Positions 11,835-27,470 of a stretch of DNA of 64,000 bases are shown piece by piece. Positions within the stretch are counted from its first letter, which is position 1. Each line of letters starts with the position of its first letter. The stretch lies in the NCBI RefSeq assembly GCF_003018235.1, contig NZ_CP027437.1. The stretch is one strand, 5' to 3'. The stretch is from Escherichia coli. GTDB taxonomy: Bacteria > Pseudomonadota > Gammaproteobacteria > Enterobacterales > Enterobacteriaceae. A program made the position numbers and the translations under genes. The notes under the pieces are model-generated. The model ran no database searches. It had not been told where the DNA came from and saw only the letters and a program-made list of their open reading frames with translations.

Positions 11835-11863
11835 CGCCGGAGCCGATACCACTGCCCGGCGAA

Positions 11864-14800
11864 TCACAGCGCTCGCTCCGGGCAGGCGAAGCGTTGCAAT
11901 AGTCCGCGATCCACTGGGTCAAAATCCCGTCCGGCGGTGATTTCCAGTATCACCCGCCGACCATCAAAGCTGTACTCCACCTGCTGTGTTCCCCGTACCG
12001 CCGTTTCTTGCGCTTTTCCCGCATCCAGCAGGTGAAACAGCGCCCACGGTCCATTAGTCAGCAGCGTCGAGGTGTCCTGGCGGATGCGCGGGCTGGCGGT
12101 TATTTCCGCCATTGAGCCGTTGCGCGGACCCGGCCAGTTAACTTTCAGCGGCCTGACCGGGCCGTGAGCGTAACGCAGTACCTGGCCGTCAATGTCAATC
12201 ACCAGTTCGGTGATGGCCGGGTCCATATCCACGACGCGGACCTGCATCGCCCATGAGAACTTTTTCCCTCCGTCGCCGTTAAAAAACACGCTGCGGATCT
12301 GTTTCGCCTCCTGAAACGGCGTCAGGTCCGGCCCCTGTAAGGTCATGTTGCCTTCGGTCGGTTTGTAGCGCCACGGATTGCTGGCGGTGTCCGCCTGTGG
12401 GGCCAGTTGCTTCGTCCAGAAGGCATCCAGCACGCCGCCGCTGGCAAAGATACGGTTAAAATCGTCCGCGCTGACCTCCTGCGGGCTGTCGGTGAAGGGG
12501 TAGCGCCCGTCGATGGCGTCGCGGCACTCATCACCGATCACCGCTTCCATCTGCGCGTTCAGCACTTCACCGGTGCCGGCGTTGATTTTTCGCGTTCCCT
12601 GCTGCGTGAGATCCAGCAGAATATTTTTCAGCGGCGCGGGCAGTTTTGCCGCCTCCAGTTGCAGTTTATCCGCCGCAGAAATGCGCCCCGGCAGAGTGCT
12701 CGCAGCCAGCGCACTGTCGGCAATGGTGAGCTGAGTGTAATACTCATTGAGCATCGTCAGCAGCGAATTTAATTGCGGCACGCCGCCGCCCTGCCCGCTG
12801 TCCGTCCGCCCGGAAACCACTTCCCGCAGGGCGGCGAAGCGGTCTTCCACCAGTGATTTTTCCAGCCGCTCTTCCGGGTGAATGTCCTGCAACAGCTTCG
12901 CCGTCTGCACCGCTTTTCCCGCATTGCCGGAGAGCCGGTCCTGCGCGCGCTGGGCCATCTGCTTTTGTCTGGCCTGCGCATCCAGAGGCGGCACCAGCGT
13001 GGTCTGCACCACCACCGCTTTACTCAGGCGCATCAGCGGGGAATCCGGCGAGGCCAGAGTGCGGAGCACCTGAAGGTCATACGCTAGTCCAGGGCTACCG
13101 TCCTCCCCGGCGCTGTTGATGCTGTGAATGCTTGCCAGAAAATCCTGCCATCGGCGAGCATATTCAGCCAGGTACAGACGACGTACCTCACGGGTAACCG
13201 GGAGTTCCTGCCCCGGTAGCTGACTCATCACAATATCAGTCGTTTTTTTTTGCGCACTTTCCCGGCCCATCACCCAGGCGTCGTCCGCTGATGCGGCGGC
13301 GACAAACTCCGACAGCCGTTTGTCGAACAGTTCCCGGTAGCCTTCGCGGGTGAAGATGCCGGGCACGCCCCTGTCCAGCGGCGCGCCATCCGTGCGGACA
13401 AAAACCGTTCCCGCATCCGCGCCCACAGCGCGAACCAGCGAAAACTCCTGCGGTGCTTCGCTCTCCATGGAAGCCAGGGCTCGAGTGTAGATACGCTCAG
13501 TGCTGTTATGGCCGTCAAGGAAGGCCCGCGCCTGGCGGATCAGCCCCTCATCTTTTTCCCAGGGCGAATGCACCACGCGGCTGCCGTCAAACAGGGCGTC
13601 AATATGCTCCAGCACGGCTGCGCGACCGCCAAACTCCGCTACGCTGTCGCGGTTGTCCAGATCGTTCAGCACCCAGGCGTGGATCTCCGCCGCGTTGTAT
13701 TTGTCCTCGTGGTCCTTATCGAGGTTCAGCAGCAGATAAACATGCAGGGCGTCATAGGCGGCTTTGCTGTCCTGACGCGCAATCGCATCTGAAAGCACGT
13801 ATTCCATTCGTTTCACCAGCGGAGGGAGCAGTAGCTGGTCCAGCAGGCGGTCATACAGGGATGCGACACTCTCCATCACCGGCGGGACGCTGTAAAGACC
13901 ATAACGCCAGGCCAGCGGCGGCGAGTCCGGGTCCATCCCCGGCCAGGCAGAGAGCGCCCGCGCCTGATTCAGCAGGGCCGGAACAGGCTGCATAGCAGGT
14001 TTTCCGGTATAGGCTTTGACATCACCATCCAGTTGGGTCGTCCGGCTGGCGATTTCATTCAGATAACCGCTGTTACCCTGCTGGCTACCCTGCATTCCCT
14101 GCCACAACCAGAAAACCAGCGCCAATACCAGCAGATGCCCGCCGGTACGCAGCAGGCGATAACGCCAGGCCCATTGAAGATTCGGCTCCACCAGGTGCGC
14201 TTCGCGGAAGATAAACCGCGTCAGTAGATCGTGCAGGAAATAGCTGCGGTTGCCGTCCGGCAGGGTATGGGATGGGGAATCTGCCTTCCCTTTGATCGCC
14301 CGGACAAAACGCTGCCAGATGCCTGTCTGATCGGCCACCGCGTCTGCCTGCGCCTGCGCGGCACTGGTGAAAAATACGCCGCGCAGGGTGTTGTTAAGCT
14401 GGGTAGCATCAAATTTTGAATCGAGGAAAATCTGTTCAATAGCTTCCAGCAGCGGCGCGCCCAGCGCGGCAAATTCACGCGGGAAGCGGTAGAGCCGCTG
14501 ACGGCTTTTAAGGTCGTACTCTTCCTGCAACCGGGTATCCAGCCCCTGATCCAGCCGCTGTGTCAGGTTTGCCAGTTCCCGGCCACAGAGCGCATGCAGC
14601 GACTGCGGATCGCTGGCGTGACGCCTGCGGCTGTAAGGCAGGGTGAAGCCCCAGACCTGGGCTCGCAGGTGACTGGTCAACCCACGGAAATACTCCGTAA
14701 AGCCCGGCAGCAGATCCATCTTGGTGACAACCAGATAGACCGGAAAACGAATGCCCAGCGTCTCCCGCAGTTCCGCCAGCCGCGCACGCAGAGCTGCACA

Positions 14801-15730: not shown

Positions 15731-15949
15731 TATTGTTCAGAACTCCACATTGTAATCATCAACAATAAAAGGCCACAAGCTGAAAATGTTTTCCCGATTC
15801 AGCACAAAAAAATAGATGGCGATCCGAAACATCACTAAACCTGAAAAATAAAATTTCGCAGCATCATTTTATTTACATCATCACGCAACAACGTTGTCAT
15901 TATTAGGTTTATGCTCAATATTTTAATTTATATACAAAATCATTCGAGT

Positions 15950-16050
15950 TGCATCAAGGCGGCAAGCGAGAGGATCCCGAAGCATTTATTCCGGTAAGTG
16001 ACTCGGGTGAACGAGTGCAGTCAACGCAGAGGCAACCTGAAGGATAAGGT
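15950..16050. repeat. ERIC/IRU-like intergenic repeat
   Basis: Contains GGTAAGTGACTCGGGTGAACGAGTGCAGTCAACGCAGAGGCAACCTGAAGG, closely resembling the ERIC core (AAGTAAGTGACTGGGGTGAGCG...), in the gap between the Tldi1-like gene and tssM. Confidence 0.5.
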
Positions 16051-16057
16051 GTATACA

Positions 16058-16513
16058 TCAAAATTCTCTGGATAGAATAATATAGCCATTGAATCTTACG
16101 GAACACTCATTTTCATTAATAAGGCCGGATGCAATAACAACATCTTTCCCCCTGTCATTGTTAATATAGGTATATTTTGCCACAATAGACTTAGCATGAT
16201 TTTCATAGTAGCTATCAAAATACGATTTTTCATCTAACATTGCCTTCTTATTTCTGGCTTTGTCCTTCTCATAATCAATCTTAGCCAGAGACTCTGCATA
16301 AAACTTAGACACAGGAGAAACATCAAGAACTTCTACCCTTGTTTTATCTCTTAAAATAGTAGAAGAATTTATATTCAAATCACTTTTCATTGCATCAAAT
16401 AACGACAACTCTATTGAGGCTCCAACCGTAGCGCAACCATCATTTTGTGCATATGAAATTGCAGGTATGCCAGCTAACAGGCAGATTATTACCTTGAACA
16501 TATTAGTCCTCAA
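16058..16513 (-). CDS. Periplasmic protein, candidate Tldi1-like immunity protein
   Basis: 151 aa with signal peptide (MFKVIICLLAGIPAISYAQ); AT-rich; overlaps the upstream effector-like gene. Confidence 0.5.
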   Translation of the reverse strand: MRTNMFKVIICLLAGIPAISYAQNDGCATVGASIELSLFDAMKSDLNINSSTILRDKTRVEVLDVSPVSKFYAESLAKIDYEKDKARNKKAMLDEKSYFDSYYENHAKSIVAKYTYINNDRGKDVVIASGLINENECSVRFNGYIILSREF

Positions 16514-16871
16514 CCACTAATATTTTATCAGTACTGGCAGCAATAACCTTGCGATAAGGTAAATCCAGAATTATACAGCCATCAGAGGCTTCTCCTGGAT
16601 GGGCTGAACTCTCTCCGTGTATCATGAAACCGTCACGCCCGCACATTTGATTTTCGGGGTAAGGCGTGAGCCTCATCGTCCATGCTCTTGTTCTTGCATG
16701 AAAAAATGCAGGTCCAATTGTATATGAACCTCTTGGCAATGGTCCCTTATCTCTTACACACTCATTAACAGAGTCATCTTTAAAACCCGGTCTGCCAGAA
16801 TATCTGGCATTGAACTGATAGCTACCATTTAAATAAAATGAACGTGCATTAATTTTGTATACCCAAGGCAT
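16503..16871 (-). CDS. Tlde1-like (DUF2778, L,D-transpeptidase-fold) candidate T6SS effector
   Basis: 122 aa; motif IHGESSAHPGEASDGCIIL (His ... x14 ... Gly-Cys) resembles the L,D-transpeptidase/Tlde1 catalytic motif; AT-rich; followed by a signal-peptide protein. Confidence 0.5.
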   Translation of the reverse strand: MPWVYKINARSFYLNGSYQFNARYSGRPGFKDDSVNECVRDKGPLPRGSYTIGPAFFHARTRAWTMRLTPYPENQMCGRDGFMIHGESSAHPGEASDGCIILDLPYRKVIAASTDKILVVED

Positions 16872-16962
16872 TACACAATCTCCTTTTTGTTAAAAAATAA
16901 TAGTCAGATCAGAACACCATATTTTATTGTTAGTTTTCTGACCTAACCATAGTCATATTAAT

Positions 16963-18279
16963 TCACTCCACCACCAGAATTTCCACCCGACGGTTCTGCG
17001 CCCGTCCGGTTTTAGTGCGGTTATCGGCCACCGGTACGGTATCTCCTTTCCCGACAACCCGGATCCGGCTGGCCGGAATACCACCGGACGTCAGCAGTGA
17101 AGCCACTTCCGCCGCCCGTTTTTCCGACAATACCTGGTTGGACGGGAATTCAGCGGAGTGGATCGGCTGGCTGTCCGTGTGGCCGGTCACCGTCACCGCG
17201 CCCCCCACACGCGCAATCTCACGCGCGGCCTTGTCAATCACCGGGCGCAGCGCATCATTCACGGTTTTCTGCCCCGGTATAAACATCGTATCGCCACGAA
17301 AGATTACACGGCTGTGATGGTCATCTTCCTCCACCGTCAGCAGGCCACGGGCGATTTCGTTCGCCAGCAGGATTTTCAGCCGCAGTTTATGCACTGGAAC
17401 GGGTGGCGGCGGTAGATTTTTACCAATGGCGTCGATACGCTGTTGTACGGTTTCGGTGGCGAGGTTCATCCGGTGGCTGTAAAGGCCAAACAGCGTCAGC
17501 ATCACCAGCAGGGCGATTCCGGCGCTCAGCCAGACCGGCACCCGGCGCATCCGCCGCATTCGCCCACTGACGGCACCGGCAAAACCCGGCGAGAGCGTCG
17601 GCGTGATCGGATCGCGACGCTGGACCAGTTGAGTCAGCAGTTGCTGGCGGATATCGTCCAGTTGTTTACGCCCGTCAGGCCGTACACTGTAGCGGCCTTC
17701 AAAACCCAGTCCCAGAATGTGGTAAATGATTTCCAGTACATCGCTGTGCTCCTGGAAGCTGGCGGCCAGACGCCCGATTATCTGAAACAGCTTGATGCCG
17801 CCTTCACTTTCGCCATGAAAAGTCACCAGCAGGCTCTTCCCGGCCCAGACACCGCGTCGCCCCCAGACGGTGTTGTTGGCAGCTTCATCCAGCGCCGTGC
17901 ACACGCAGTAACGTACCGCCAGCACATGTTCGCGGCGCAGGTTTGCCTGGTCGCACAGCGTCTGATACCGGCGGACTTCACGCTCCAGTAGGGCGCGATA
18001 ATGTTCGACAAAACCAGGGGAAAGTTCACGGGGCATTTGCGCCAGCGCGCATAACAGAGGGCTGGCCGCCGCCAGAAGAGGATTCACAGCAGCAGTGATC
18101 TCAGCCAAGCGGAGCTTCAAATCTGGCCCGTCTTCAACCACCACCTTTATATCTTCCCTGCGAAGGCTGTCCTGGACGAGCGTATCGTAACCGTCATTAT
18201 CAGGCGACCTTGTTCCCCTTATTGAAGGCTGTAATTGCAGGGTATTCACCGCAGGTTGCGTCAGAATATCGTCGGTCAT
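16963..18279 (-). CDS. tssL: TssL (DotU-like) fused to a C-terminal OmpA/MotB-type peptidoglycan-binding domain
   Basis: 438 aa; central TM segment; C-terminus ...VTGHTDSQ...SEKRAAEVASLL...NRRVEILV is a typical OmpA-like motif. Confidence 0.85.
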   Translation of the reverse strand: MTDDILTQPAVNTLQLQPSIRGTRSPDNDGYDTLVQDSLRREDIKVVVEDGPDLKLRLAEITAAVNPLLAAASPLLCALAQMPRELSPGFVEHYRALLEREVRRYQTLCDQANLRREHVLAVRYCVCTALDEAANNTVWGRRGVWAGKSLLVTFHGESEGGIKLFQIIGRLAASFQEHSDVLEIIYHILGLGFEGRYSVRPDGRKQLDDIRQQLLTQLVQRRDPITPTLSPGFAGAVSGRMRRMRRVPVWLSAGIALLVMLTLFGLYSHRMNLATETVQQRIDAIGKNLPPPPVPVHKLRLKILLANEIARGLLTVEEDDHHSRVIFRGDTMFIPGQKTVNDALRPVIDKAAREIARVGGAVTVTGHTDSQPIHSAEFPSNQVLSEKRAAEVASLLTSGGIPASRIRVVGKGDTVPVADNRTKTGRAQNRRVEILVVE

Positions 18280-19619
18280 TTATCGCGAACTCCCCACAGC
18301 TCCAGCTCCAGCCCTGGAAACTCTCCGGCGGTATGCATTGCCATGCCACCATAGCGGGCGATATGTTCCCACAACACGCCGTCGCGGCGGATGTCGTAAT
18401 AGATGTAACCGGACTGGAACGGGATCTGACGCGGTGGCACTGGCAGCATCTGTAGAACAAGACCAGGAAGGTGCGAGCGAATCAGTTCCGGCAGGCGTTC
18501 TGACGGCCCTATTTTGGTCTGAGCCGAAAAATGTTGTAGTAAGGTGTCGGCGGACATCTGTGCCTTCACCGCCAATACTAACGAGCTGAAATCTGACAGT
18601 TCGGTAGGTTCAACCACCGCATTGAGAATACCGTAAGTTCCCTCTTCCAGAGGGATTCGCTGCGCCCCACGTATTAGCACAGCATTCAGCAGATACTGAA
18701 CCTCGTCCACCACCGATTTCAGCCCGGCATAGGGCGTCAGGTGCTTATATTCTTTATATTCTTCCGGACGACGTGTTTGCGGACGCACGTAGGTAGAGAG
18801 TTCTCCGGCCAGTGCGCAGAGGTTACGATAGAGTACTTCAGGCGATAGCGGCGTTTTCGACATATGGATCAATAAGGGGCCGAAACGATTAAGAACTTGC
18901 AGAAGCAGGTAATCCGACACTTCCGCCGCTTCATGACCGTGTTTGTCGCTCCCCGTCAATCGTTCCGCCAGCGAATCTGCACGCATTTTTATCAGATCGT
19001 TAATCCACGACAGCCAGGTACATATCAGCGTACTGGCCTGGTAGTTCGCCACTGGCGGGATCAACTCTTTGTCTATATCGACCCGACCATCGGGATGCAG
19101 CGCCGTGATGCGCGTCAGCGGCAGGCCGATCCACGCGTCTGTCACCGCCTTTTCCGGTAACAGTCGCAAGCGCAGGTGGCTAAGTTGCAGCAGTTGCGCG
19201 CCTCGCCCCAGCGAATTGGCATCACGGATTTCACTTTCATGTACCGAAAAACGTGCCAGTGATTCAGGGTTATTGTCGAAACTGGTTTCTTCACTGTTCG
19301 GCGTACGTATTGGCACAGCCAGATAAATCAACTGGTTAAGATGTTCTGGAAGGATGGTCAGAGGCGGCGGGAGTGGTGTATGACCCGGCGCATTAAAAGG
19401 TGTACCGTCAGCAAATACCCCGGAAGCCTTCGTAAGTACCAGTTTTCCGATGTTCAGCGCCTCACTACCAATACCATACTCATTGAAGCCCCAGTAAAAA
19501 GGTGAAAGAGGCAAACTGCGATAATGAATGACATGTTCCAGATAGCGTTCCTGCTGCTGAAACATCTGTGGCAACAAAAATTGTCCTTCACTCCAGACCA
19601 CCCGGTTATTCCAACTCAT
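18276..19619 (-). CDS. tssK: TssK baseplate protein
   Basis: 447 aa; N-terminus MSWNNRVVWSEGQFLLPQMFQQQ is characteristic of TssK. Confidence 0.9.
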   Translation of the reverse strand: MSWNNRVVWSEGQFLLPQMFQQQERYLEHVIHYRSLPLSPFYWGFNEYGIGSEALNIGKLVLTKASGVFADGTPFNAPGHTPLPPPLTILPEHLNQLIYLAVPIRTPNSEETSFDNNPESLARFSVHESEIRDANSLGRGAQLLQLSHLRLRLLPEKAVTDAWIGLPLTRITALHPDGRVDIDKELIPPVANYQASTLICTWLSWINDLIKMRADSLAERLTGSDKHGHEAAEVSDYLLLQVLNRFGPLLIHMSKTPLSPEVLYRNLCALAGELSTYVRPQTRRPEEYKEYKHLTPYAGLKSVVDEVQYLLNAVLIRGAQRIPLEEGTYGILNAVVEPTELSDFSSLVLAVKAQMSADTLLQHFSAQTKIGPSERLPELIRSHLPGLVLQMLPVPPRQIPFQSGYIYYDIRRDGVLWEHIARYGGMAMHTAGEFPGLELELWGVRDK

Positions 19620-20820: not shown

Positions 20821-21192
20821 TCATTTCTTAACACTCCTGGAAATCAACTCATCCAATTCATTTCCATGAATGAAATCTATACATTTCATAGTACTGAAGT
20901 CTGATGCTATAGAACCATCATATTTTAATGATGCATATTTTCTCGCTATCGCATCTATTTCACGAAAAATTTCTACAGGTTGCTGACCATATTCAAGATA
21001 AGCACTAGCTGTAGCTCTGGCATCATCCTGAACGACATCATTTTTATACACCAATGACAAACAATGACTCAAAGCCCAATTGCGTAAGAGCTCTGACTGA
21101 GAATATTTTTCAGTCAATGCTTCCTGAGCATAAGATAATTGACATATCTGTAGCCCACAGAGGCCCCAAAATATTAATTTCAGCCATTTCAT
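20821..21192 (-). CDS. tai4: Tai4-like periplasmic immunity protein
   Basis: Signal peptide (MKWLKLIFWGLCGLQICQLSYAQE); start ATG overlaps the tae4 stop (ATGA), suggesting translational coupling. Confidence 0.6.
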   Translation of the reverse strand: MKWLKLIFWGLCGLQICQLSYAQEALTEKYSQSELLRNWALSHCLSLVYKNDVVQDDARATASAYLEYGQQPVEIFREIDAIARKYASLKYDGSIASDFSTMKCIDFIHGNELDELISRSVKK

Positions 21193-21674
21193 GGTAGTAC
21201 CCACAGGATTCCGACTTCAGGAACAAATGTTCCATTATCTGGATCATTTAGTAGATGGCATTGATCTGAACAAACGCTACCATTCCATAATGTTACATGT
21301 CCCCGAGCATTGCTCCAGCCATGGCCTTTTACAACAATGATGCCTTTTTTACCTGTAAAGTCACCAGGAGTTGGATTATTAATGACAAGATCTGGCTTCC
21401 CCATAATCTGGGTCAGATGTTCAATCATATCATTCACACGATAAATATAAAATTTCTTATCAGAACCACTAACCGTTGCATAGGGAGAACTACGGGATAT
21501 CGGAAATCCCGTAGCATTCAAAACATAACTCATACGAATTGGACAAGCATTTTCAAAATAGCCACCTGAAATATTTTGCCCAACATTTCCGCCAATTATA
21601 AGACCGACATCAGCAACGGGAAAATTCACTTTTCCAAATGCCGACCATGCCTCATTAAATGAAGGTCTACCCAT
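21189..21674 (-). CDS. tae4: Tae4-family peptidoglycan amidase effector
   Basis: 161 aa; Cys44 (ENACPIR) and His126 (ARGHVTLW) are positioned as I recall for the Tae4 catalytic dyad; AT-rich; followed by a signal-peptide protein. Confidence 0.65.
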   Translation of the reverse strand: MGRPSFNEAWSAFGKVNFPVADVGLIIGGNVGQNISGGYFENACPIRMSYVLNATGFPISRSSPYATVSGSDKKFYIYRVNDMIEHLTQIMGKPDLVINNPTPGDFTGKKGIIVVKGHGWSNARGHVTLWNGSVCSDQCHLLNDPDNGTFVPEVGILWVLP

Positions 21675-21726: not shown

Positions 21727-23241
21727 TCAGGTATTACCCTGTTTTACCGACGGCAGTTTTGTGACCAGACGCAGTGATCCTGTTAACCCTTCAAGCTGAA
21801 AATGCGGGCGCAGGAAGAATTTGGCATCGTAATAATCCGGATTACCTTCCACCTCTTCCACCACCACTTCAGCAGCTGCCAGTGGGCGACGAGCTTTGGT
21901 TTCCTGTGAGGAGTTCACCGGATCGGCATCGACGTAGTTCATGATCCACTCATTGAGCCAGCGCTGCATATCTTCACGCTCTTTGAACGAGCCGATCTTG
22001 TCGCGCACGATACATTTGAGGAAGTGCGCAAACCGTGAACAGGCGAAAAGATATGGCAAACGAGCTGAGAGATTGGCGTTGGCCGTAGCGTCCGGATCGT
22101 AATACTCCTGCGGTTTTTGTAGAGACTGAGCGCCAATAAAGGCGGCGTAATCAGAGTTTTTGCGGTGGATAAGTGGGATAAAACCATTTTTCGCCAGTTC
22201 AGCTTCACGACGGTCAGAGATGGCAATTTCTGTCGGGCATTTCATATCCACGCCGCCGTCATCGGTCGGGAAGGTATGACAGGGCAGATTTTCCACCGCG
22301 CCACCAGATTCAACACCGCGGATCAACGTACACCAACCGTAATGTTTGAAAGAGCGGTTGATATTTACACCCATTGCATAGGCGGCATTGCTCCAGACAT
22401 ATTTGCTGTGATCTGCGCCATCCGCATCTTCTTCAAAATCAAACTCATCGACAGGGTTTGTTTTCGCACCATAAGGCAAACGGGAGAGAAAACGTGGCAT
22501 CGTCAGGCCAATGTAGCGAGAATCCTCACTTTTTCGCAGCGAGTTCCACGGTGCGTATTCGAGGTTTTGGGTCACAATTTTGGTCAGATCACGCGGGTTA
22601 GCCAGTTCCTGCCAGGAGTCCATCTGCAACACTGACGGAGAGGCCCCAGCAATAAACGGCGCATGGGCTGAGGCTGCCACTTTGGCAATGGAGCCGAGCA
22701 GATCCACATCCGGTGGCGTGTGATCAAAATAATAATCCGCAATGATACAACCGTAAGGTTCTCCGCCTAACTGTCCATATTCAGCTTCATAAAGCTTTTT
22801 GAACATGGGGCTTTGATCCCAGGCGATCCCTTTGTAACGCTTCATATTTTTCCGCAATTCATCCTTTGAAAGATTCATAAAACGGATTTTTAATTTTTCA
22901 TCGGTTTCAGTGTTGTAAACCAAATGTTCCATCCCACGCCAGGAGGACTCCAGTTTCTGAAATTCCGGATGACTCAGGATTAGTTTGATCTGCTCAGTTA
23001 ATTTGAAATCGATCTGCTCAATAATCGCAGCAATACTTTTATAAGCGTCGTCACTGACGGTGACGGTATTTGTCAAAGCCTGTTGGGCCAGCGTCTGAAC
23101 TGCTGCCTCAACAGCCTTTGCTGCCTGAGGTGTCTTGGGACGGAAGGCTTTATCCAGGAGCGAATCAAATTCAGTGTCCTGATAGGCAGTGGTTTGCGCA
23201 GCAGAGAGTTCGCCAGTCGCCAGAAGAGTATCGTTTACCAT
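21727..23241 (-). CDS. tssC: TssC (VipB) sheath large subunit
   Basis: 504 aa; conserved TssC sequence throughout. Confidence 0.92.
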   Translation of the reverse strand: MVNDTLLATGELSAAQTTAYQDTEFDSLLDKAFRPKTPQAAKAVEAAVQTLAQQALTNTVTVSDDAYKSIAAIIEQIDFKLTEQIKLILSHPEFQKLESSWRGMEHLVYNTETDEKLKIRFMNLSKDELRKNMKRYKGIAWDQSPMFKKLYEAEYGQLGGEPYGCIIADYYFDHTPPDVDLLGSIAKVAASAHAPFIAGASPSVLQMDSWQELANPRDLTKIVTQNLEYAPWNSLRKSEDSRYIGLTMPRFLSRLPYGAKTNPVDEFDFEEDADGADHSKYVWSNAAYAMGVNINRSFKHYGWCTLIRGVESGGAVENLPCHTFPTDDGGVDMKCPTEIAISDRREAELAKNGFIPLIHRKNSDYAAFIGAQSLQKPQEYYDPDATANANLSARLPYLFACSRFAHFLKCIVRDKIGSFKEREDMQRWLNEWIMNYVDADPVNSSQETKARRPLAAAEVVVEEVEGNPDYYDAKFFLRPHFQLEGLTGSLRLVTKLPSVKQGNT

Positions 23242-23265
23242 GAAAGTTCCTTAATAAAATCGCAG

Positions 23266-23811
23266 TTAGTCTGCTGTTCCCGTTTCACCTGATAAGACAC
23301 TTTCCTGTTGAGCGACAGGTTTTGGCGCACTAGCCAGAGCTTTCAGTAACGTAGGGTCTTGTAATAGTTTGTTGATAAGATTTTCTGCTCCCGCTTTACC
23401 ATCCATGTAGGTTTGTAGGTTGGCAAGCTGAGTACGCGCTTCCAGCAGCTGGTTCAGGGCATCCACCTTACGGGCAATCTGCGCAGGCGAAAAATCGTCC
23501 ATATTCTCTAACGTGATATCGACCATTAACTGCCCTTCGCCCGTCAGCGTATTGGGGACAGCAAACGCCACGCGCGGCGCAATGGCTTTCATCCTCTCGT
23601 TGAAGTTATCGATATCAATATCAAGGAATTTACGATCGGTGACCGGCGGCAGCTCTTCACGCGGTTTACCCGCCAGGTCGGCCAGCACCGCCATGACAAA
23701 CGGCAGTTCGATTTTTTTCTCGGAGCCGTAAATCTCAACGTCATACTCAATCTGCACGCGGGGCGCGCGGTTGCGGGCAATAAACTTCTGCGCGCTGTTG
23801 TTGATAGCCAT
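23266..23811 (-). CDS. tssB: TssB (VipA) sheath small subunit
   Basis: 181 aa; MAINNSAQKFIARNRAPRVQIEYDVEIYG... is typical of TssB. Confidence 0.92.
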   Translation of the reverse strand: MAINNSAQKFIARNRAPRVQIEYDVEIYGSEKKIELPFVMAVLADLAGKPREELPPVTDRKFLDIDIDNFNERMKAIAPRVAFAVPNTLTGEGQLMVDITLENMDDFSPAQIARKVDALNQLLEARTQLANLQTYMDGKAGAENLINKLLQDPTLLKALASAPKPVAQQESVLSGETGTAD

Positions 23812-23872
23812 AATCCTTCATTTCCTTATCAGTCAGCCGACGACCACCTGGGGAGTGGCCCGACGGTACAGT

Positions 23873-24163
23873 TTAAAAATCATACGCAGAGAGTATTTTT
23901 ATAATCTCTTTGTTTTCTTTGTACTTTTCCCGAAGCACAGGGAGTGATTTCTTCGCCGGAGGACACCAGGTATCAACCCCCTTTTCGATGTCTCTTTTAT
24001 CCTTCTTTGGTAAAGAACTGTCCCATTCACCAGCAAGATGCTGGCACATTTCCGCATTACTCAGAAAATGCTGCACATCCTGTGGTAAAGGCGGTTCCCC
24101 CTGAACACAGAAAGCGAACATCATTAACAGGAATGTCAACAACATCGGATAACGAAATGTCAT
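23873..24163 (-). CDS. Small exported protein, candidate immunity protein for the adjacent zinc peptidase
   Basis: 96 aa; N-terminal signal peptide (MLLTFLLMMFAFCVQG); starts 3 bp after the upstream ORF stop. Confidence 0.45.
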   Translation of the reverse strand: MTFRYPMLLTFLLMMFAFCVQGEPPLPQDVQHFLSNAEMCQHLAGEWDSSLPKKDKRDIEKGVDTWCPPAKKSLPVLREKYKENKEIIKILSAYDF

Positions 24164-24165
24164 AC

Positions 24166-24729
24166 TTAATGTCCATCAATTGACCAGTGAGGTATATCTG
24201 TATTGCCGCCAACAAATTTTCTGACGCCGTAACCCAGACCTACCGCCTGAAGCTGGGCATTCATTCCGGTTCGAGGTAGTGTATTAATTGCAACATTCTG
24301 ACCATTGCTCCCCGCAATTGTTAATGTTCCGCTCCAACTGATATTCATATCTATCGCAGTACCGCGTGTATGGTTGGAGCTCAGTGCAGGCGCGACATTC
24401 AGATTATTCATACCATAGGCCGTAACCATAGCCTGCGCCGCTTCAAGCGAGGCTTGCTCAGTCGGGTGAACCCACTCAATATCCATCCCCTCCATCGCCG
24501 GGACGTTTTTTGCCTGAACGATTTCATGAGCAATCAACCATGACCAGTGCATGAGATATGCTCTGGCGGGAGGGCGATATGTTGCAGAGATACTGACCCT
24601 TGCACGCGCATTACCAAGCGCGCGCAAAAAATTATCTACCGATGCACGAAAAGTCCCCTGCAAATCATTAGTGGAAGAACTTCCAGGAAAGCGACTGACC
24701 CACAGTGCGCCACTTAATTCTTTTGCCAT
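24166..24729 (-). CDS. LAS/M15-type zinc peptidase-like protein (H-x6-D ... D-x2-H); candidate peptidoglycan-targeting T6SS effector
   Basis: 187 aa; SSNHTRGTAIDMN (SxHxxGxAxD-like) and TDIPHW motifs; no signal peptide; sits between clpV and tssB with a downstream signal-peptide ORF. Confidence 0.5.
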   Translation of the reverse strand: MAKELSGALWVSRFPGSSSTNDLQGTFRASVDNFLRALGNARARVSISATYRPPARAYLMHWSWLIAHEIVQAKNVPAMEGMDIEWVHPTEQASLEAAQAMVTAYGMNNLNVAPALSSNHTRGTAIDMNISWSGTLTIAGSNGQNVAINTLPRTGMNAQLQAVGLGYGVRKFVGGNTDIPHWSIDGH

Positions 24730-24741
24730 AAGGATGCTCCA

Positions 24742-26223
24742 TTAATCCGTTTCAAAAATAATCTGTTCATCCTCATCAACACGAATGCGGATTTGCGTGA
24801 TGGCCGTTTTCTCTGTCATCGCCTGCAACCAATAACGGGACAGTTGTGGGAGGATATGTTGTTCGATATAGCCGATGAGCAAACGAGCGCCGGTTTCGTG
24901 CATCGGGCAGCGCGACACAATATGCGTAATCAGTTCATCGCCATACACCAGTGAAACGCCATGCTGCTCCGCCATCCGATCCATCAATCTGCCAAGATGC
25001 AGGCGGGCAATAACACCACGCGCGGTCTCATCCAGCGGTAAATAAGGAATAACCGTCACACGCCCCAGGAAAGCCGCCGGGAAGTGTTTACGTAACTCCG
25101 GCATTAACGCCTCTTTTAGTCCTGCCGAATCAGGCATCAGCGCCGGATCCTTTTCGATATGGCGTTTGTACTCGCTCCAAGTGGTTGCGCCGATGGTGCG
25201 CAGGGTGCCACGCGCCAGCGCCGGTTTCAGCAGGTTGGCAGCATCCCCCGTACCGGATGTACCACCAGCGCCCACCAGCGTGTGAACTTCATCAACAAAA
25301 AGGATTACCGGCTGCGGCGAGCGCGCGGCCTCTTCTAGCAACGCTTTCAGGCGGGATTCAAATTCACCCTTCATGGACGCCCCAGCCAGCAGCGCTCCAA
25401 CATCCAGTGACAGCAACCGCACGTTACGCAGTGAAGGCGGTACTTCCCCCCCGGCAATCGCCAGCGCGAATCCTTCCACCACTGCCGTTTTCCCGACTCC
25501 CGCTTCGCCGGTCAGTAGCGGGTTGTTCTGGCGACGGCGCAGCAGAATATCCGTCATAGTACGGATCTCGTGTTCGCGACCGGTGACCGGATCGATATTG
25601 CCTTCACGGGCCAGCGCAGTCATGTCCTGGCAGTATTTCGCCAGCGCGGATTTGCTTCCGGTTGATTCGCCGGCAAAGACCTGGCTAGCTTCCCCCGGTA
25701 CTGCAGAATTTAAATCCGAGCCGTCATAAGGCATTTCTGTTAATTCAGGAGATGAAGTGATTAAAGACGGAAGAATATCTAATAGTTCATCTACCGGTAG
25801 CTCTGCCAATGGCGCACAAATATTTTTTAACACCCGACACAATTCTGGCGTGGTTAACCAGGCAAGTAATAACCATCCACTACGAATTTTTTTATCGCCA
25901 AAGCGGATACTTGCCAACATCCAGGCTTTTTCAACAGAAAGATCGATATGATGGGAAAAATCGTTAATTACACTCGCTCCGGCAGGCAATATATTCAATT
26001 GCTGAATTAACGCCTTCTCAACATCAGCAGATGTTATTTGATAATGTCGAAGCACATTGTGAATGTCATTCTCTGGTTGTTGTATTAACTGATGCAACCA
26101 ATGCGTCAGTTCGACATAAGGATTAGCGCGTAATTTACAGAACGTCGTCGCAGATTCCAAAGATCTAAACAAAGATTTGGTTAGCTTTCCATACAGTGCA
26201 CTGCGCGAAACAGGAGTGTCCAT
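24742..26223 (-). CDS. clpV: ClpV (TssH) AAA+ ATPase with an apparent in-frame internal deletion (N-domain plus first ATPase domain joined to the C-terminal small domain)
   Basis: 493 aa against about 850-900 expected. Walker A GEAGVGKT and Walker B ILFVDEVH of the first domain run to ...IEKDPAL, joined directly to ...[24 protein letters not shown]...GARLL..., the ClpB/ClpV C-terminal signature. Confidence 0.8.
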
Positions 26224-26555
26224 CTGTTACACCTAATGATGTAAGAACATATAAATGATACATAAACATAACTGTACCGATTAAAACTTCTAATTAATAG
26301 AATTATCAAAAAGGCCGAATGAAACAATGATGCATATCACAGAACACAATGTAATATAGCAGGTAGTATCTTTTTCATGGTGATATTCAATAGAGCAAGC
26401 CAATTTCATACATACCATGAATATATTAAATTGAAAATCGCCACTATATATTTCCGCGAAAACTTATATTGATAAAGTAAATTGATCAGCATTGCTTATC
26501 TAAAAATTTAGAAAACTTATTCTTTTGAAAGAAACATTCTACACAGTGATACACA
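26224..26555. promoter_or_regulatory. AT-rich divergent control region between the clpV operon and the tagH-tssA operon
   Basis: 332 bp, strongly AT-rich, between divergently transcribed T6SS operons; contains a GATC site near 26483. No promoter elements individually mapped. Confidence 0.5.
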
Positions 26556-27470
26556 ATGAAACCAAATATTACGTGGGGACTCCAAAAAATACAGGCGCAC
26601 GGGATCGCCGATAACACAATTTACGCGACTGAAGGAACCCAAATTATCTTCACCGTTACCTCACCCTGGATTCCTGTTTTTGAGGTGAATGATGATGTAA
26701 AGATTGCCCTCAGTCTGACCCGCCACGAAGAAGCATGGTGGATTATCAATCAGTCTACCGAATATTGCTGTACGGTAAACGACCAGATTGTGGAACCTCA
26801 TCACCGTATGCGTCTGAATGAAGGCGATCTGATAGAATGGGGGTTATCTTCATGGTGCCTTGTGCACGGCAATCCATCATCTCCGGACCTGAGCGCAGTA
26901 AATACGACATCGCAGACTGCCACCATGTCGGAAACAATAACCGAATATCTGGATCTGGATTGGTTCAGGCAGCAGCATCTGACATCACAAAATCCATTCG
27001 ATATCATTCCTGTTCATGGAGCCTCCTCCACTGGAGAAGATGCTAAAAAAGAAAATGCCCTGACTCGACTTTATCAGGAATACCGCGAGGCGTTGTTATC
27101 TCCTGAACAAGATCTTCATCGCCATGCTGATCCTTTTCCCTTTAACGAAGAGCCCTCCTCACAGGATCTGGATTCATTGCGTGATCTGGTCACTGAAGCC
27201 GAGACATTGCAGGATATGGTCACTGGCGGGTTAAGCATTGACGCTATTCTCGATGTCCTGGACGCCACCGGCGAAGGGGAAACCGCCTGGCCTGCCGAAA
27301 AGACGCCCCCAGATATCCTGCACCTGCTATCCCCGGAATGCGCACCGGAAACAGCGCATAACACCGTTCTACCCGACCTGACACGCAAAGAGCATCGCAT
27401 CATTGGCATTGACAGCCATTATCGGATAAACCCGGCACAACACGGAGAGATATCTCATGACAAACAATAA
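26556..27470 (+). CDS. T6SS-associated protein, possibly FHA-domain (TagH-like)
   Basis: 304 aa; first gene of the plus-strand operon; N-terminal region has a weak FHA-like pattern; C-terminal half is acidic and low complexity. Confidence 0.4.
   Translation: MKPNITWGLQKIQAHGIADNTIYATEGTQIIFTVTSPWIPVFEVNDDVKIALSLTRHEEAWWIINQSTEYCCTVNDQIVEPHHRMRLNEGDLIEWGLSSWCLVHGNPSSPDLSAVNTTSQTATMSETITEYLDLDWFRQQHLTSQNPFDIIPVHGASSTGEDAKKENALTRLYQEYREALLSPEQDLHRHADPFPFNEEPSSQDLDSLRDLVTEAETLQDMVTGGLSIDAILDVLDATGEGETAWPAEKTPPDILHLLSPECAPETAHNTVLPDLTRKEHRIIGIDSHYRINPAQHGEISHDKQ

Follow-up and report, generated by a model that had tools for sequence, protein, structure and literature searches.

Among the cargoes of type VI secretion systems (T6SSs), the Tae1-4/Tai, Tge/Tgi, and Tlde1/Tldi1 pairs follow a common logic, in which an effector without a signal peptide is directed at the cell wall and an immunity protein encoded next to it resides in the periplasm. 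The enzymes have different folds: papain-like in Tae, lysozyme-like in Tge, and YkuD in Tlde1. Zinc peptidases of the LAS/M15 type have also been connected to T6SSs, as M15-like or MepA-like domains predicted in WHIX effectors (PMC12135965) and as predicted, VgrG-linked LysM-M15 proteins of Neisseria (PMC10210955). In Acinetobacter, the T6SS core clusters encode TagX, an L-Ala-D-Glu endopeptidase of the LAS family without which Hcp is not exported (Weber et al. 2016; PMC5061870). Finally, Blondel et al. (2023; PMC10469887) reported an unannotated 32-residue “L-Ala-D-Glu endopeptidase” open reading frame (ORF) between tssH and tssB in 18 of 60 Salmonella genomes, and listed it with a downstream signal-peptide ORF as a candidate effector/immunity module. 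Here, we examine the same interval in 64,000 nucleotides of Escherichia coli contig NZ_CP027437.1 (assembly GCF_003018235.1), a stretch that we call the window.

Two adjacent ORFs occupy this interval of the window, one of 187 residues (24166-24729; 20.1 kDa, isoelectric point 8.2) and one of 96 residues (23873-24163); both ORFs, like tssH (clpV) and tssB on either side, lie on the minus strand. An original prediction, made from the letters of the window, had placed them between clpV and tssB and proposed a peptidoglycan peptidase effector with a periplasmic immunity protein. The placement is exact, and the functional proposal has gained support from the co-inheritance of the two genes, from the adjacency or fusion of peptidase homologs to PAAR and VgrG, and from an orphan immunity gene in Salmonella. 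The listing of the Salmonella module by Blondel et al. (2023), arrived at independently, also speaks for it. We consider it likely that the pair is an antibacterial T6SS cargo effector with its immunity protein.

The locus compares with the described systems as follows. It is the same locus, with the same genes, as the tssH-tssB module of Salmonella pathogenicity island 6 (SPI-6), and the window carries the full-length form of the peptidase gene with all predicted catalytic residues. TagX and the 187-residue protein both have an LAS fold, a Ply500-like site (H, D, and H plus an Asp base), and a gene in a T6SS cluster. However, TagX has two transmembrane segments, matches pfam13539, is essential for the apparatus, and has no immunity partner (PMC5061870), whereas the 187-residue protein is a soluble one that no Pfam model matches significantly, that related clusters can do without, and that has a partner predicted to be periplasmic. 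It shares the logic of the Tae, Tge, and Tlde1 systems and differs from all three in its LAS fold, and its sequence family is distinct from the Pfam-recognized M15 domains of the WHIX effectors (PMC12135965) and of the Neisseria proteins (PMC10210955). In short, the fold class, the effector/immunity logic, the prediction of LAS/M15 domains in T6SS effectors, and the flagging of the locus in Salmonella are already known. What is new is that both the peptidase family and the immunity family are unannotated and that the full-length gene explains a misread candidate in the literature.

Motifs and predicted fold of the 187-residue protein

Three blocks make up the predicted active site. SATYRPP (residues 48-54; 24568-24588), with an invariant R52-P53, is the counterpart of YDAYRPQ in DdpX of E. 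coli. Based on homolog conservation, SSNHTRGTAIDMN (residues 117-129; 24343-24381) is predicted to supply the first two zinc ligands through H120-x6-D127, and TDIPHW (residues 177-182; 24184-24201) is predicted to supply the general base and the third zinc ligand through D178-x2-H181. In an alignment of 25 diverse homologs (50 to 97% identity), the invariant columns include R52, P53, H88, H120, D178, H181, W182, and S183, with D127 nearly invariant, and 142 of the 148 top-ranked cluster representatives screened retain both zinc motifs. The protein thus carries the zinc triad of the LAS superfamily (MEROPS clan MD), H120-x6-D127 followed by H181, as well as the acidic general base of the clan three residues before the last His (D178) and the upstream Arg (R52).

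Matched by motif, not by superposition, R52, H120, D127, and D178-x2-H181 come in the order of R71, H98, D105, and E162-x2-H165 of DdpX, such that the DdpX blocks YDAYRPQ, GSNHSRGTAIDL, and SEWWHF correspond to SATYRPP, SSNHTRGTAIDM, and TDIPHW. In VanX-type enzymes, these blocks carry, respectively, the transition-state Arg, the first His and the Asp among the zinc ligands, and the general base with the last His; we take the Arg common to SATYRPP and YDAYRPQ to be this transition-state Arg. Because the three ordered blocks are common to the two proteins, the original prediction had read the H-x6-D and D-x2-H motifs correctly. An hhalign comparison with DdpX, used as motif evidence only, paired SSNHTRGTAIDMN with GSNHSRGTAIDLT and aligned the H-x6-D block alone, at a probability of 15%.

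The fold was predicted from the same 25-homolog alignment, which yielded an AlphaFold model with a mean predicted local distance difference test (pLDDT) score of 92 and a predicted template modeling score of 0.83. The model has the hedgehog/DD-peptidase fold: in a Foldseek search of the PDB, the LAS fold anticipated by the original prediction accounted for all of the 21 best matches, every one an LAS/M15 structure, with Ply500 on top (E=1.3e-4) at moderate structural scores and with LdcB, VanXYc, VanY, LysB4, LysECD7, VanX, and ChiX also among the matches.

Hidden Markov models (HMMs) tell a different story from the fold. The best Pfam match of the protein, Peptidase_M15_4, spans 16 residues (117-132) and is not significant (E=0.12), and the NCBIfam DdpX model (PRK10178) covers residues 101-130 at E=0.024, scoring 14.3 bits versus a cut-off of 176. 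Pfam gave no significant match for the 187-residue protein, the 96-residue protein, or the 25-member alignment; a PHROGs search of the 187-residue protein gave no match; and sequence searches of the PDB, whether with the protein alone or with a profile, returned noise only. Since no M15 HMM matches significantly, we file the protein as a separate family within the LAS superfamily and not in M15 proper, so that the earlier assignment to M15/LAS holds for the motifs and the predicted fold and fails at the M15 thresholds. The M15 L-Ala-D-Glu endopeptidases (Ply500, LysB4, T5 EndoT5, CwlK, and Serratia ChiX) are 12 to 17% identical to it, with no HMM-level match, and it departs from them by having an additional helical segment at the N terminus and some 40 inserted residues. 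VanX/DdpX and VanY/LdcB are found in other cellular contexts with other partner genes, and the score of the protein lies far under the cut-offs of these families.

The protein has no signal peptide or transmembrane segment (maximum 19-residue Kyte-Doolittle value, 0.57). NCBI names it “peptidoglycan-binding domain-containing protein” or “hypothetical”. We regard it as very probably an LAS-fold zinc peptidase.

The 96-residue partner

The signal peptide that had been proposed for the 96-residue ORF is borne out by an n-h-c N-terminus, with a basic residue followed by hydrophobic ones and a best 19-residue Kyte-Doolittle window, starting at residue 2, of 1.67 versus 0.57 for the 187-residue protein. 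The predicted Sec signal peptide comprises residues 1-22, MTFRYPMLLTFLLMMFAFCVQG|E (24098-24163), with a putative cleavage site, VQG|E, read by eye after residue 22; the mature protein would then have about 74 residues (8.6 kDa). In an AlphaFold2 model (pLDDT 90), helices span residues 28-46, 53-80, and 85-92, and the mature protein is predicted to be a helical hairpin followed by a short helix.

In 29 aligned sequences at 20 to 45% identity to the window protein, just two columns are invariant, both of them cysteines: C40 in helix 1 (24044-24046) and C67, which the secondary structure of the model places in helix 2 (23963-23965). The two lie on the antiparallel helices 28-46 and 53-80 of the model, from which we infer a C40-C67 disulfide and hence a periplasmic location. 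A fold search of the PDB with this model found no significant counterpart, the best matches being generic helical proteins at E about 1, and the fold of the immunity candidate is thus without a known counterpart there.

One annotation of this ORF was tried and rejected. NCBIfam matched it to StoA_CxxC/ResA (E=1e-6), and WCPPAKK raised the idea of a thioredoxin fragment. The match scores 29 bits where the cut-off is 210, homologs do not keep the CPP, and the model is all helical; the match is an artifact of the signal peptide and the nonconserved WCPP.

Inheritance of the pair and its links to type VI secretion

Do the two genes belong together, and do they belong to the T6SS? In E. coli, the 187-residue ORF starts 12 nucleotides past the tssH stop codon, with GGAG ahead of its ATG; the ATG of the 96-residue ORF follows the TAA of the 187-residue ORF by 2 nucleotides; and tssB starts 61 nucleotides beyond the stop codon of the 96-residue ORF. 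Because a promoter and terminator scan of 23200-26700 found sites no more numerous than in shuffled sequence, co-transcription with tssH and tssB is plausible from the spacing alone; the earlier description of the pair as embedded in the core operon likewise has its support in the gene spacing. The 1.2 kb around the pair is found at 95 to 99% identity in 117 of 5,426 complete E. coli genomes, always on the chromosome, and tssB of the same cluster type is found in 116 of the 5,426; within E. coli, the pair travels with the cluster type. Against orthologs from Escherichia sp. and Salmonella-like sequences, the ratio of nonsynonymous to synonymous substitution rates is 0.08 to 0.09 for the 187-residue ORF and 0.15 to 0.27 for the 96-residue ORF. 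Both are under purifying selection and are therefore real genes.

Beyond E. coli, a word-indexed search found 304 homologs of the 187-residue protein, and a full scan found 1,129 clusters (50% identity) at E<=1e-3, 570 of them at E<=1e-30. The peptidase domain is always C terminal, in proteins of up to 1,317 residues. By word-indexed search, the 96-residue protein is confined to Escherichia, Salmonella, and Citrobacter; inspection of the next gene, however, revealed the same small protein after distant peptidase homologs in Intestinirhabdus, Pectobacterium, Herbaspirillum, and Scleromatobacter, with the common core DVxxFLxNAxxCxHLxGE...C...L..Y. A locus survey of one genome per species recovered 70 loci. 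In about 42 of the 70 species, spanning Enterobacterales, Pseudomonas, Xanthomonadales, Burkholderiales, Neisseriales, and Rhodocyclales, the ORF that immediately follows the peptidase gene is matched by an HMM of the small protein. All 40 of 40 downstream homologs have a hydrophobic N terminus, about a third of them with a lipobox instead. The small signal-peptide protein is therefore co-inherited with the peptidase across Gamma- and Betaproteobacteria, and the arrangement is that of an effector/immunity pair: no signal on the effector and an adjacent, co-inherited, exported partner.

The links to type VI secretion come from these 70 surveyed loci plus two found earlier. The peptidase loci of E. 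coli, Escherichia sp., and Salmonella lie inside a T6SS core cluster, and in 17 species the peptidase homolog starts at, or inside, the end of a PAAR gene. In Rhodanobacter glycinis, PAAR (Pfam E=1e-26) is fused to the peptidase via a glycine linker, the small protein comes next, and VgrG and TssM flank the locus. VgrG abuts the peptidase homolog in two Pseudomonas species, and an Hcp gene does so in one Massilia. All but one or two of the PAAR/VgrG-linked homologs have an N-terminal extension of about 20 residues, (A)xLTPTxDxTPAVVS, and the peptidase-linked PAAR proteins carry a conserved stretch of about 100 extra residues at the C terminus. The enterobacterial peptidases, including that of the window, lack this tag and begin directly with M(A)KELSG. 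From this correlation we infer that the N-terminal tag loads the effector onto PAAR; the tag and the PAAR extension may be loading signal and receptor.

The family is wider than its T6SS members. A metagenome-assembled genome (MAG) of a proteobacterium encodes a GH19 domain fused to the peptidase domain (E=7.5e-4), a Planctomycetota protein combines the peptidase domain with a signal peptide and a pesticin/lysozyme domain (E=2.8e-6), and homologs from ten Paenibacillus species bear a Sec signal peptide and lack an immunity-like gene next to them. Because of the GH19 and pesticin fusions and the Paenibacillus signal peptides, we regard the family as a whole as a secreted wall hydrolase domain, of which the T6SS cargo form is one branch. 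Alphaproteobacterial homologs are about 180 residues long and have neither a signal peptide nor a recognizable partner. The long forms might have been polymorphic T6SS toxins of the classic kind, but we dropped this idea when NCBIfam found no VgrG, Rhs, or PAAR domain in the 19 scanned.

At six loci (Ralstonia, Rugamonas, Janthinobacterium, and a Burkholderiaceae MAG), a different protein, of about 175 to 190 residues and with a signal peptide, lies downstream of the peptidase gene. It has the motif G(F/Y)(F/Y)SN...DDPH..GY, is unrelated to the 96-residue type, and is found with PAAR upstream at all of its loci; it is a second candidate immunity family that would replace the 96-residue type.

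Decay of the peptidase gene and retention of its partner

The 32-residue ORF of Salmonella reads MPKELSGAQWV|YGVTKFVGGNTDKPHWSIDGH, that is, residues 1-11 fused in frame to residues 167-187 of a Salmonella-type 187-residue allele, of which the full-length comparison allele (P0003) is 80% identical to the window protein. Residues 12-166 are deleted in these Salmonella enterica SPI-6 loci (L081 and L082, 4900-5291), which keep an intact 96-residue gene, 82% identical to that of the window. Because R52, H120, and D127 are missing, the 32-residue ORF cannot be an enzyme or effector. The published module is a deletion remnant with an orphan immunity gene beside it, something that paper did not notice; in both loci, the immunity gene is kept and the toxin is lost. 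A Salmonella-like contig with tcf fimbrial genes (L083) carries the intact 187- and 96-residue pair at 80% identity.

In S. enterica subsp. salamae (L079, 3870-4292, and L080), a copy of the immunity gene lies outside any T6SS cluster, near a DDE transposase and an autotransporter. The 140-residue called product there starts LPDVCKTTPFGVPVPFP, which we take to resemble the N terminus of a PAAR-like domain, and this copy may be another orphan immunity gene, left by a different effector with a PAAR-like fusion.

Within E. coli, no predicted zinc ligand is lost from the major peptidase alleles, which were seen on 576, 359, and 41 contigs. D127N occurs in a minor lineage, in one allele together with H181Y; these allele frequencies are rough, with 40 of 307 cluster members read. 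In E. coli strain 06-00048, the best-matching record, the peptidase gene is frameshifted (18172-18736 of its locus, L001). Decay of a toxin with retention of its antidote is typical of effector/immunity pairs and is unexpected for an assembly enzyme.

The window has suffered a loss of its own. Its tssH has an in-frame internal deletion and encodes 493 instead of 877 residues, having lost 384 codons relative to strain 06-00048; positions 16612-17750 of L001 are absent, with the junction near 25137-25151 of the window. The window TssH scores 577 bits versus the NCBIfam TssH cut-off of 885.

Proposed mechanism

We propose the following model. The peptidase gene would be co-transcribed with tssH and tssB, and its product, a 20-kDa LAS zinc peptidase (hedgehog/DD-peptidase fold, nearest to MEROPS M15), would be made in the cytoplasm without a signal peptide and fired by the T6SS into the periplasm of a neighboring Gram-negative cell. 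There, with zinc held by H120, D127, and H181, with D178 as the general base, and with R52 stabilizing the transition state, it would cut a bond of the peptidoglycan stem peptide. Our best guess for this bond is L-Ala-D-Glu, at somewhat less than even odds; otherwise, the enzyme would act as a DD- or LD-carboxypeptidase or endopeptidase. The 96-residue protein would be exported by Sec, fold as a helical hairpin stapled by the C40-C67 disulfide, and block enzyme arriving from sister cells.

How would the E. coli peptidase be loaded? We posit loading through Hcp, which we consider the likeliest route because the protein lacks the LTPTxDxTPAV tag and is small.

We also entertain, tentatively and with more doubt than belief, a broader claim: that the pair represents a distinct, unannotated LAS peptidase family (about 1,100 clusters at 50% identity, with no Pfam model) whose T6SS branch has three features without described precedent. 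These would be a disulfide-stapled hairpin inhibitor of about 75 residues, as a new way to block an LAS/M15 site; loading by the LTPTxDxTPAV tag onto PAAR with a C-terminal extension, while the tag-less enterobacterial forms use Hcp; and possibly a bond specificity unlike that of Tae, Tge, and Tlde in SPI-6-type systems.

Counterevidence and alternative explanations

Several observations weigh against the cargo explanation. For the 10 or so cassettes of enterobacteria other than E. coli and Salmonella, no T6SS gene lies closer than 6 kb. The E. coli pair itself has no adjacent PAAR, VgrG, or adaptor gene, so that its delivery route is a guess. The wider family is not T6SS specific: it extends to Paenibacillus, Planctomycetota, Chloroflexi, and Alphaproteobacteria and contains many long proteins, 19 of which were scanned with NCBIfam and showed no VgrG, Rhs, or PAAR domain. 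By sequence profile, the 187-residue protein never reaches significance as a member of M15. The loss of 384 residues from ClpV may leave delivery impaired or absent in the window strain. Finally, the searchable literature yielded no experiment on this peptidase family; enzymes of this type were linked to T6SSs only in the cases of TagX, the module of Blondel et al. (2023), and the M15-like domains predicted in other classes of effectors. The accessible part of the supplements to a 2026 Salmonella effector survey had no entry that could be tied to it, and a preprint on the T6SS of Shiga toxin-producing E. coli described other effectors only.

Could the 187-residue protein instead be an accessory enzyme like TagX, one that cuts the producer's own peptidoglycan for assembly, with the small protein as its regulator or partner? 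TagX offers a precedent for an LAS enzyme in the core cluster, Ply500 is both the template of the TagX model and the best structural match of the 187-residue protein, and, in E. coli, this cluster type is never without the pair. Yet TagX is anchored by its transmembrane segments with the domain in the periplasm, whereas the 187-residue protein, having neither a signal peptide nor such a segment, has no Sec route into the periplasm of its producer. In Salmonella, clusters built to the same plan have dispensed with residues 12-166 of the peptidase and kept the small gene, which is not the conservation of a TagX-type component, and homologs occur as two-gene cassettes far from the T6SS core, next to PAAR or VgrG, or fused to PAAR, an architecture of cargo. 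We consider an assembly role improbable. Very improbable, in our view, is a cytoplasmic housekeeping dipeptidase of the VanX/DdpX type, which would hydrolyze D-Ala-D-Ala and would be in the island by chance. Locally, the protein is indeed most similar in sequence to DdpX (SSNHTRGTAID pairs with GSNHSRGTAID, and the order of the YRP and (E/D)xxH blocks is shared), and the absence of a signal peptide suits a cytoplasmic enzyme. However, the bit score lies far below that required of a DdpX equivalog (14.3 versus 176), the genes nearby are those of a T6SS and not ddp (ddpXABCDF) or van genes, about 40 residues are inserted, relative to DdpX, between the Arg and His blocks, its obligate partner is exported and has conserved cysteines, and relatives are fused to PAAR, GH19, or pesticin domains or bear signal peptides. 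The closest structures, the catalytic domains of the phage endolysins Ply500, LysB4, and T5 EndoT5, also bring to mind a remnant of a phage endolysin or of a mobile-element lysis gene unconnected to T6SS function; with no PHROGs match, no phage genes in the neighborhood, a tssH-tssB position that is fixed in Escherichia and Salmonella, and strong purifying selection, we give this origin next to no credence.

Of a different kind is the question of whether the cargo is stranded in the window strain, that is, whether the T6SS is disabled, the effector goes undelivered, and the immunity gene alone is of use, against armed relatives. The in-frame loss of 384 tssH codons and the TssH score below its cut-off point in this direction, as do the further stages of decay in related lineages (the zinc-ligand substitutions, the frameshift, and the 32-residue remnant). 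On the other hand, the effector ORF of the window is intact, with every predicted catalytic residue present, and the tssH deletion could be recent. Moreover, loss of ClpV lowers T6SS activity and in some species does not always abolish it. We view stranding as possible, at well below even odds; it qualifies the explanation of the pair as effector and immunity protein and does not replace it.

Significance

The analysis offers a function for a gene that NCBI calls a “peptidoglycan-binding domain-containing protein” or “hypothetical” and for which Pfam has no model. It also supplies a correction to the literature, in that the 32-residue “candidate effector” published for Salmonella is a deletion remnant beside an orphan immunity gene. 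In E. coli and Salmonella, a candidate LAS-fold enzyme joins Tae4 among the cell-wall toxins of SPI-6-type T6SSs, and the correlation between the tag and the PAAR extension provides a lead on effector loading. The two small soluble proteins would make a compact system for studying protein inhibition of LAS/M15 peptidases, with a bearing on vancomycin resistance, whose enzymes VanX and VanY share this active site. The general understanding of T6SS effector/immunity systems is unchanged by the pair.

Gene order and variable regions of the island

The upstream neighbor of the pair is tssH/clpV (24742-26223), and the downstream neighbor is tssB, encoding the sheath small subunit (23266-23811); both are annotated in a 99.4% identical E. 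coli record. The co-oriented run tssH-187-residue ORF-96-residue ORF-tssB belongs to an E. coli T6SS island whose start adjoins a tRNA-Asp gene. In strain 06-00048, the order is tagK-tagJ-tssEFG-tssA, divergent from tssH-[two ORFs]-tssB-tssC-...-hcp-tssJKL-tssM-...-vgrG-rhs, and this layout is of the SPI-6 type.

The window contains another cell-wall effector/immunity pair, Tae4/Tai4, between tssC and hcp (20821-21674). Its 161-residue ORF is 83% identical to a Salmonella protein bearing the Pfam Tae4 domain, and its 127-residue ORF is 69% identical to a Salmonella protein bearing the Pfam Tai4 domain; an NCBIfam scan recognized neither ORF. Strain 06-00048 has a BPSL0067/STY0301 pair where the window has Tae4/Tai4. 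A Rap1a/Tai plus Tae4 module that follows tssM in strain 06-00048 (L001, 30878-32445) is missing from the window (11854-11891), and the tssL-tssM interval also differs between the two (window, 15747-16956; L001, 26031-26985). The stretches after tssM and between tssL and tssM are variable cargo regions of the island.

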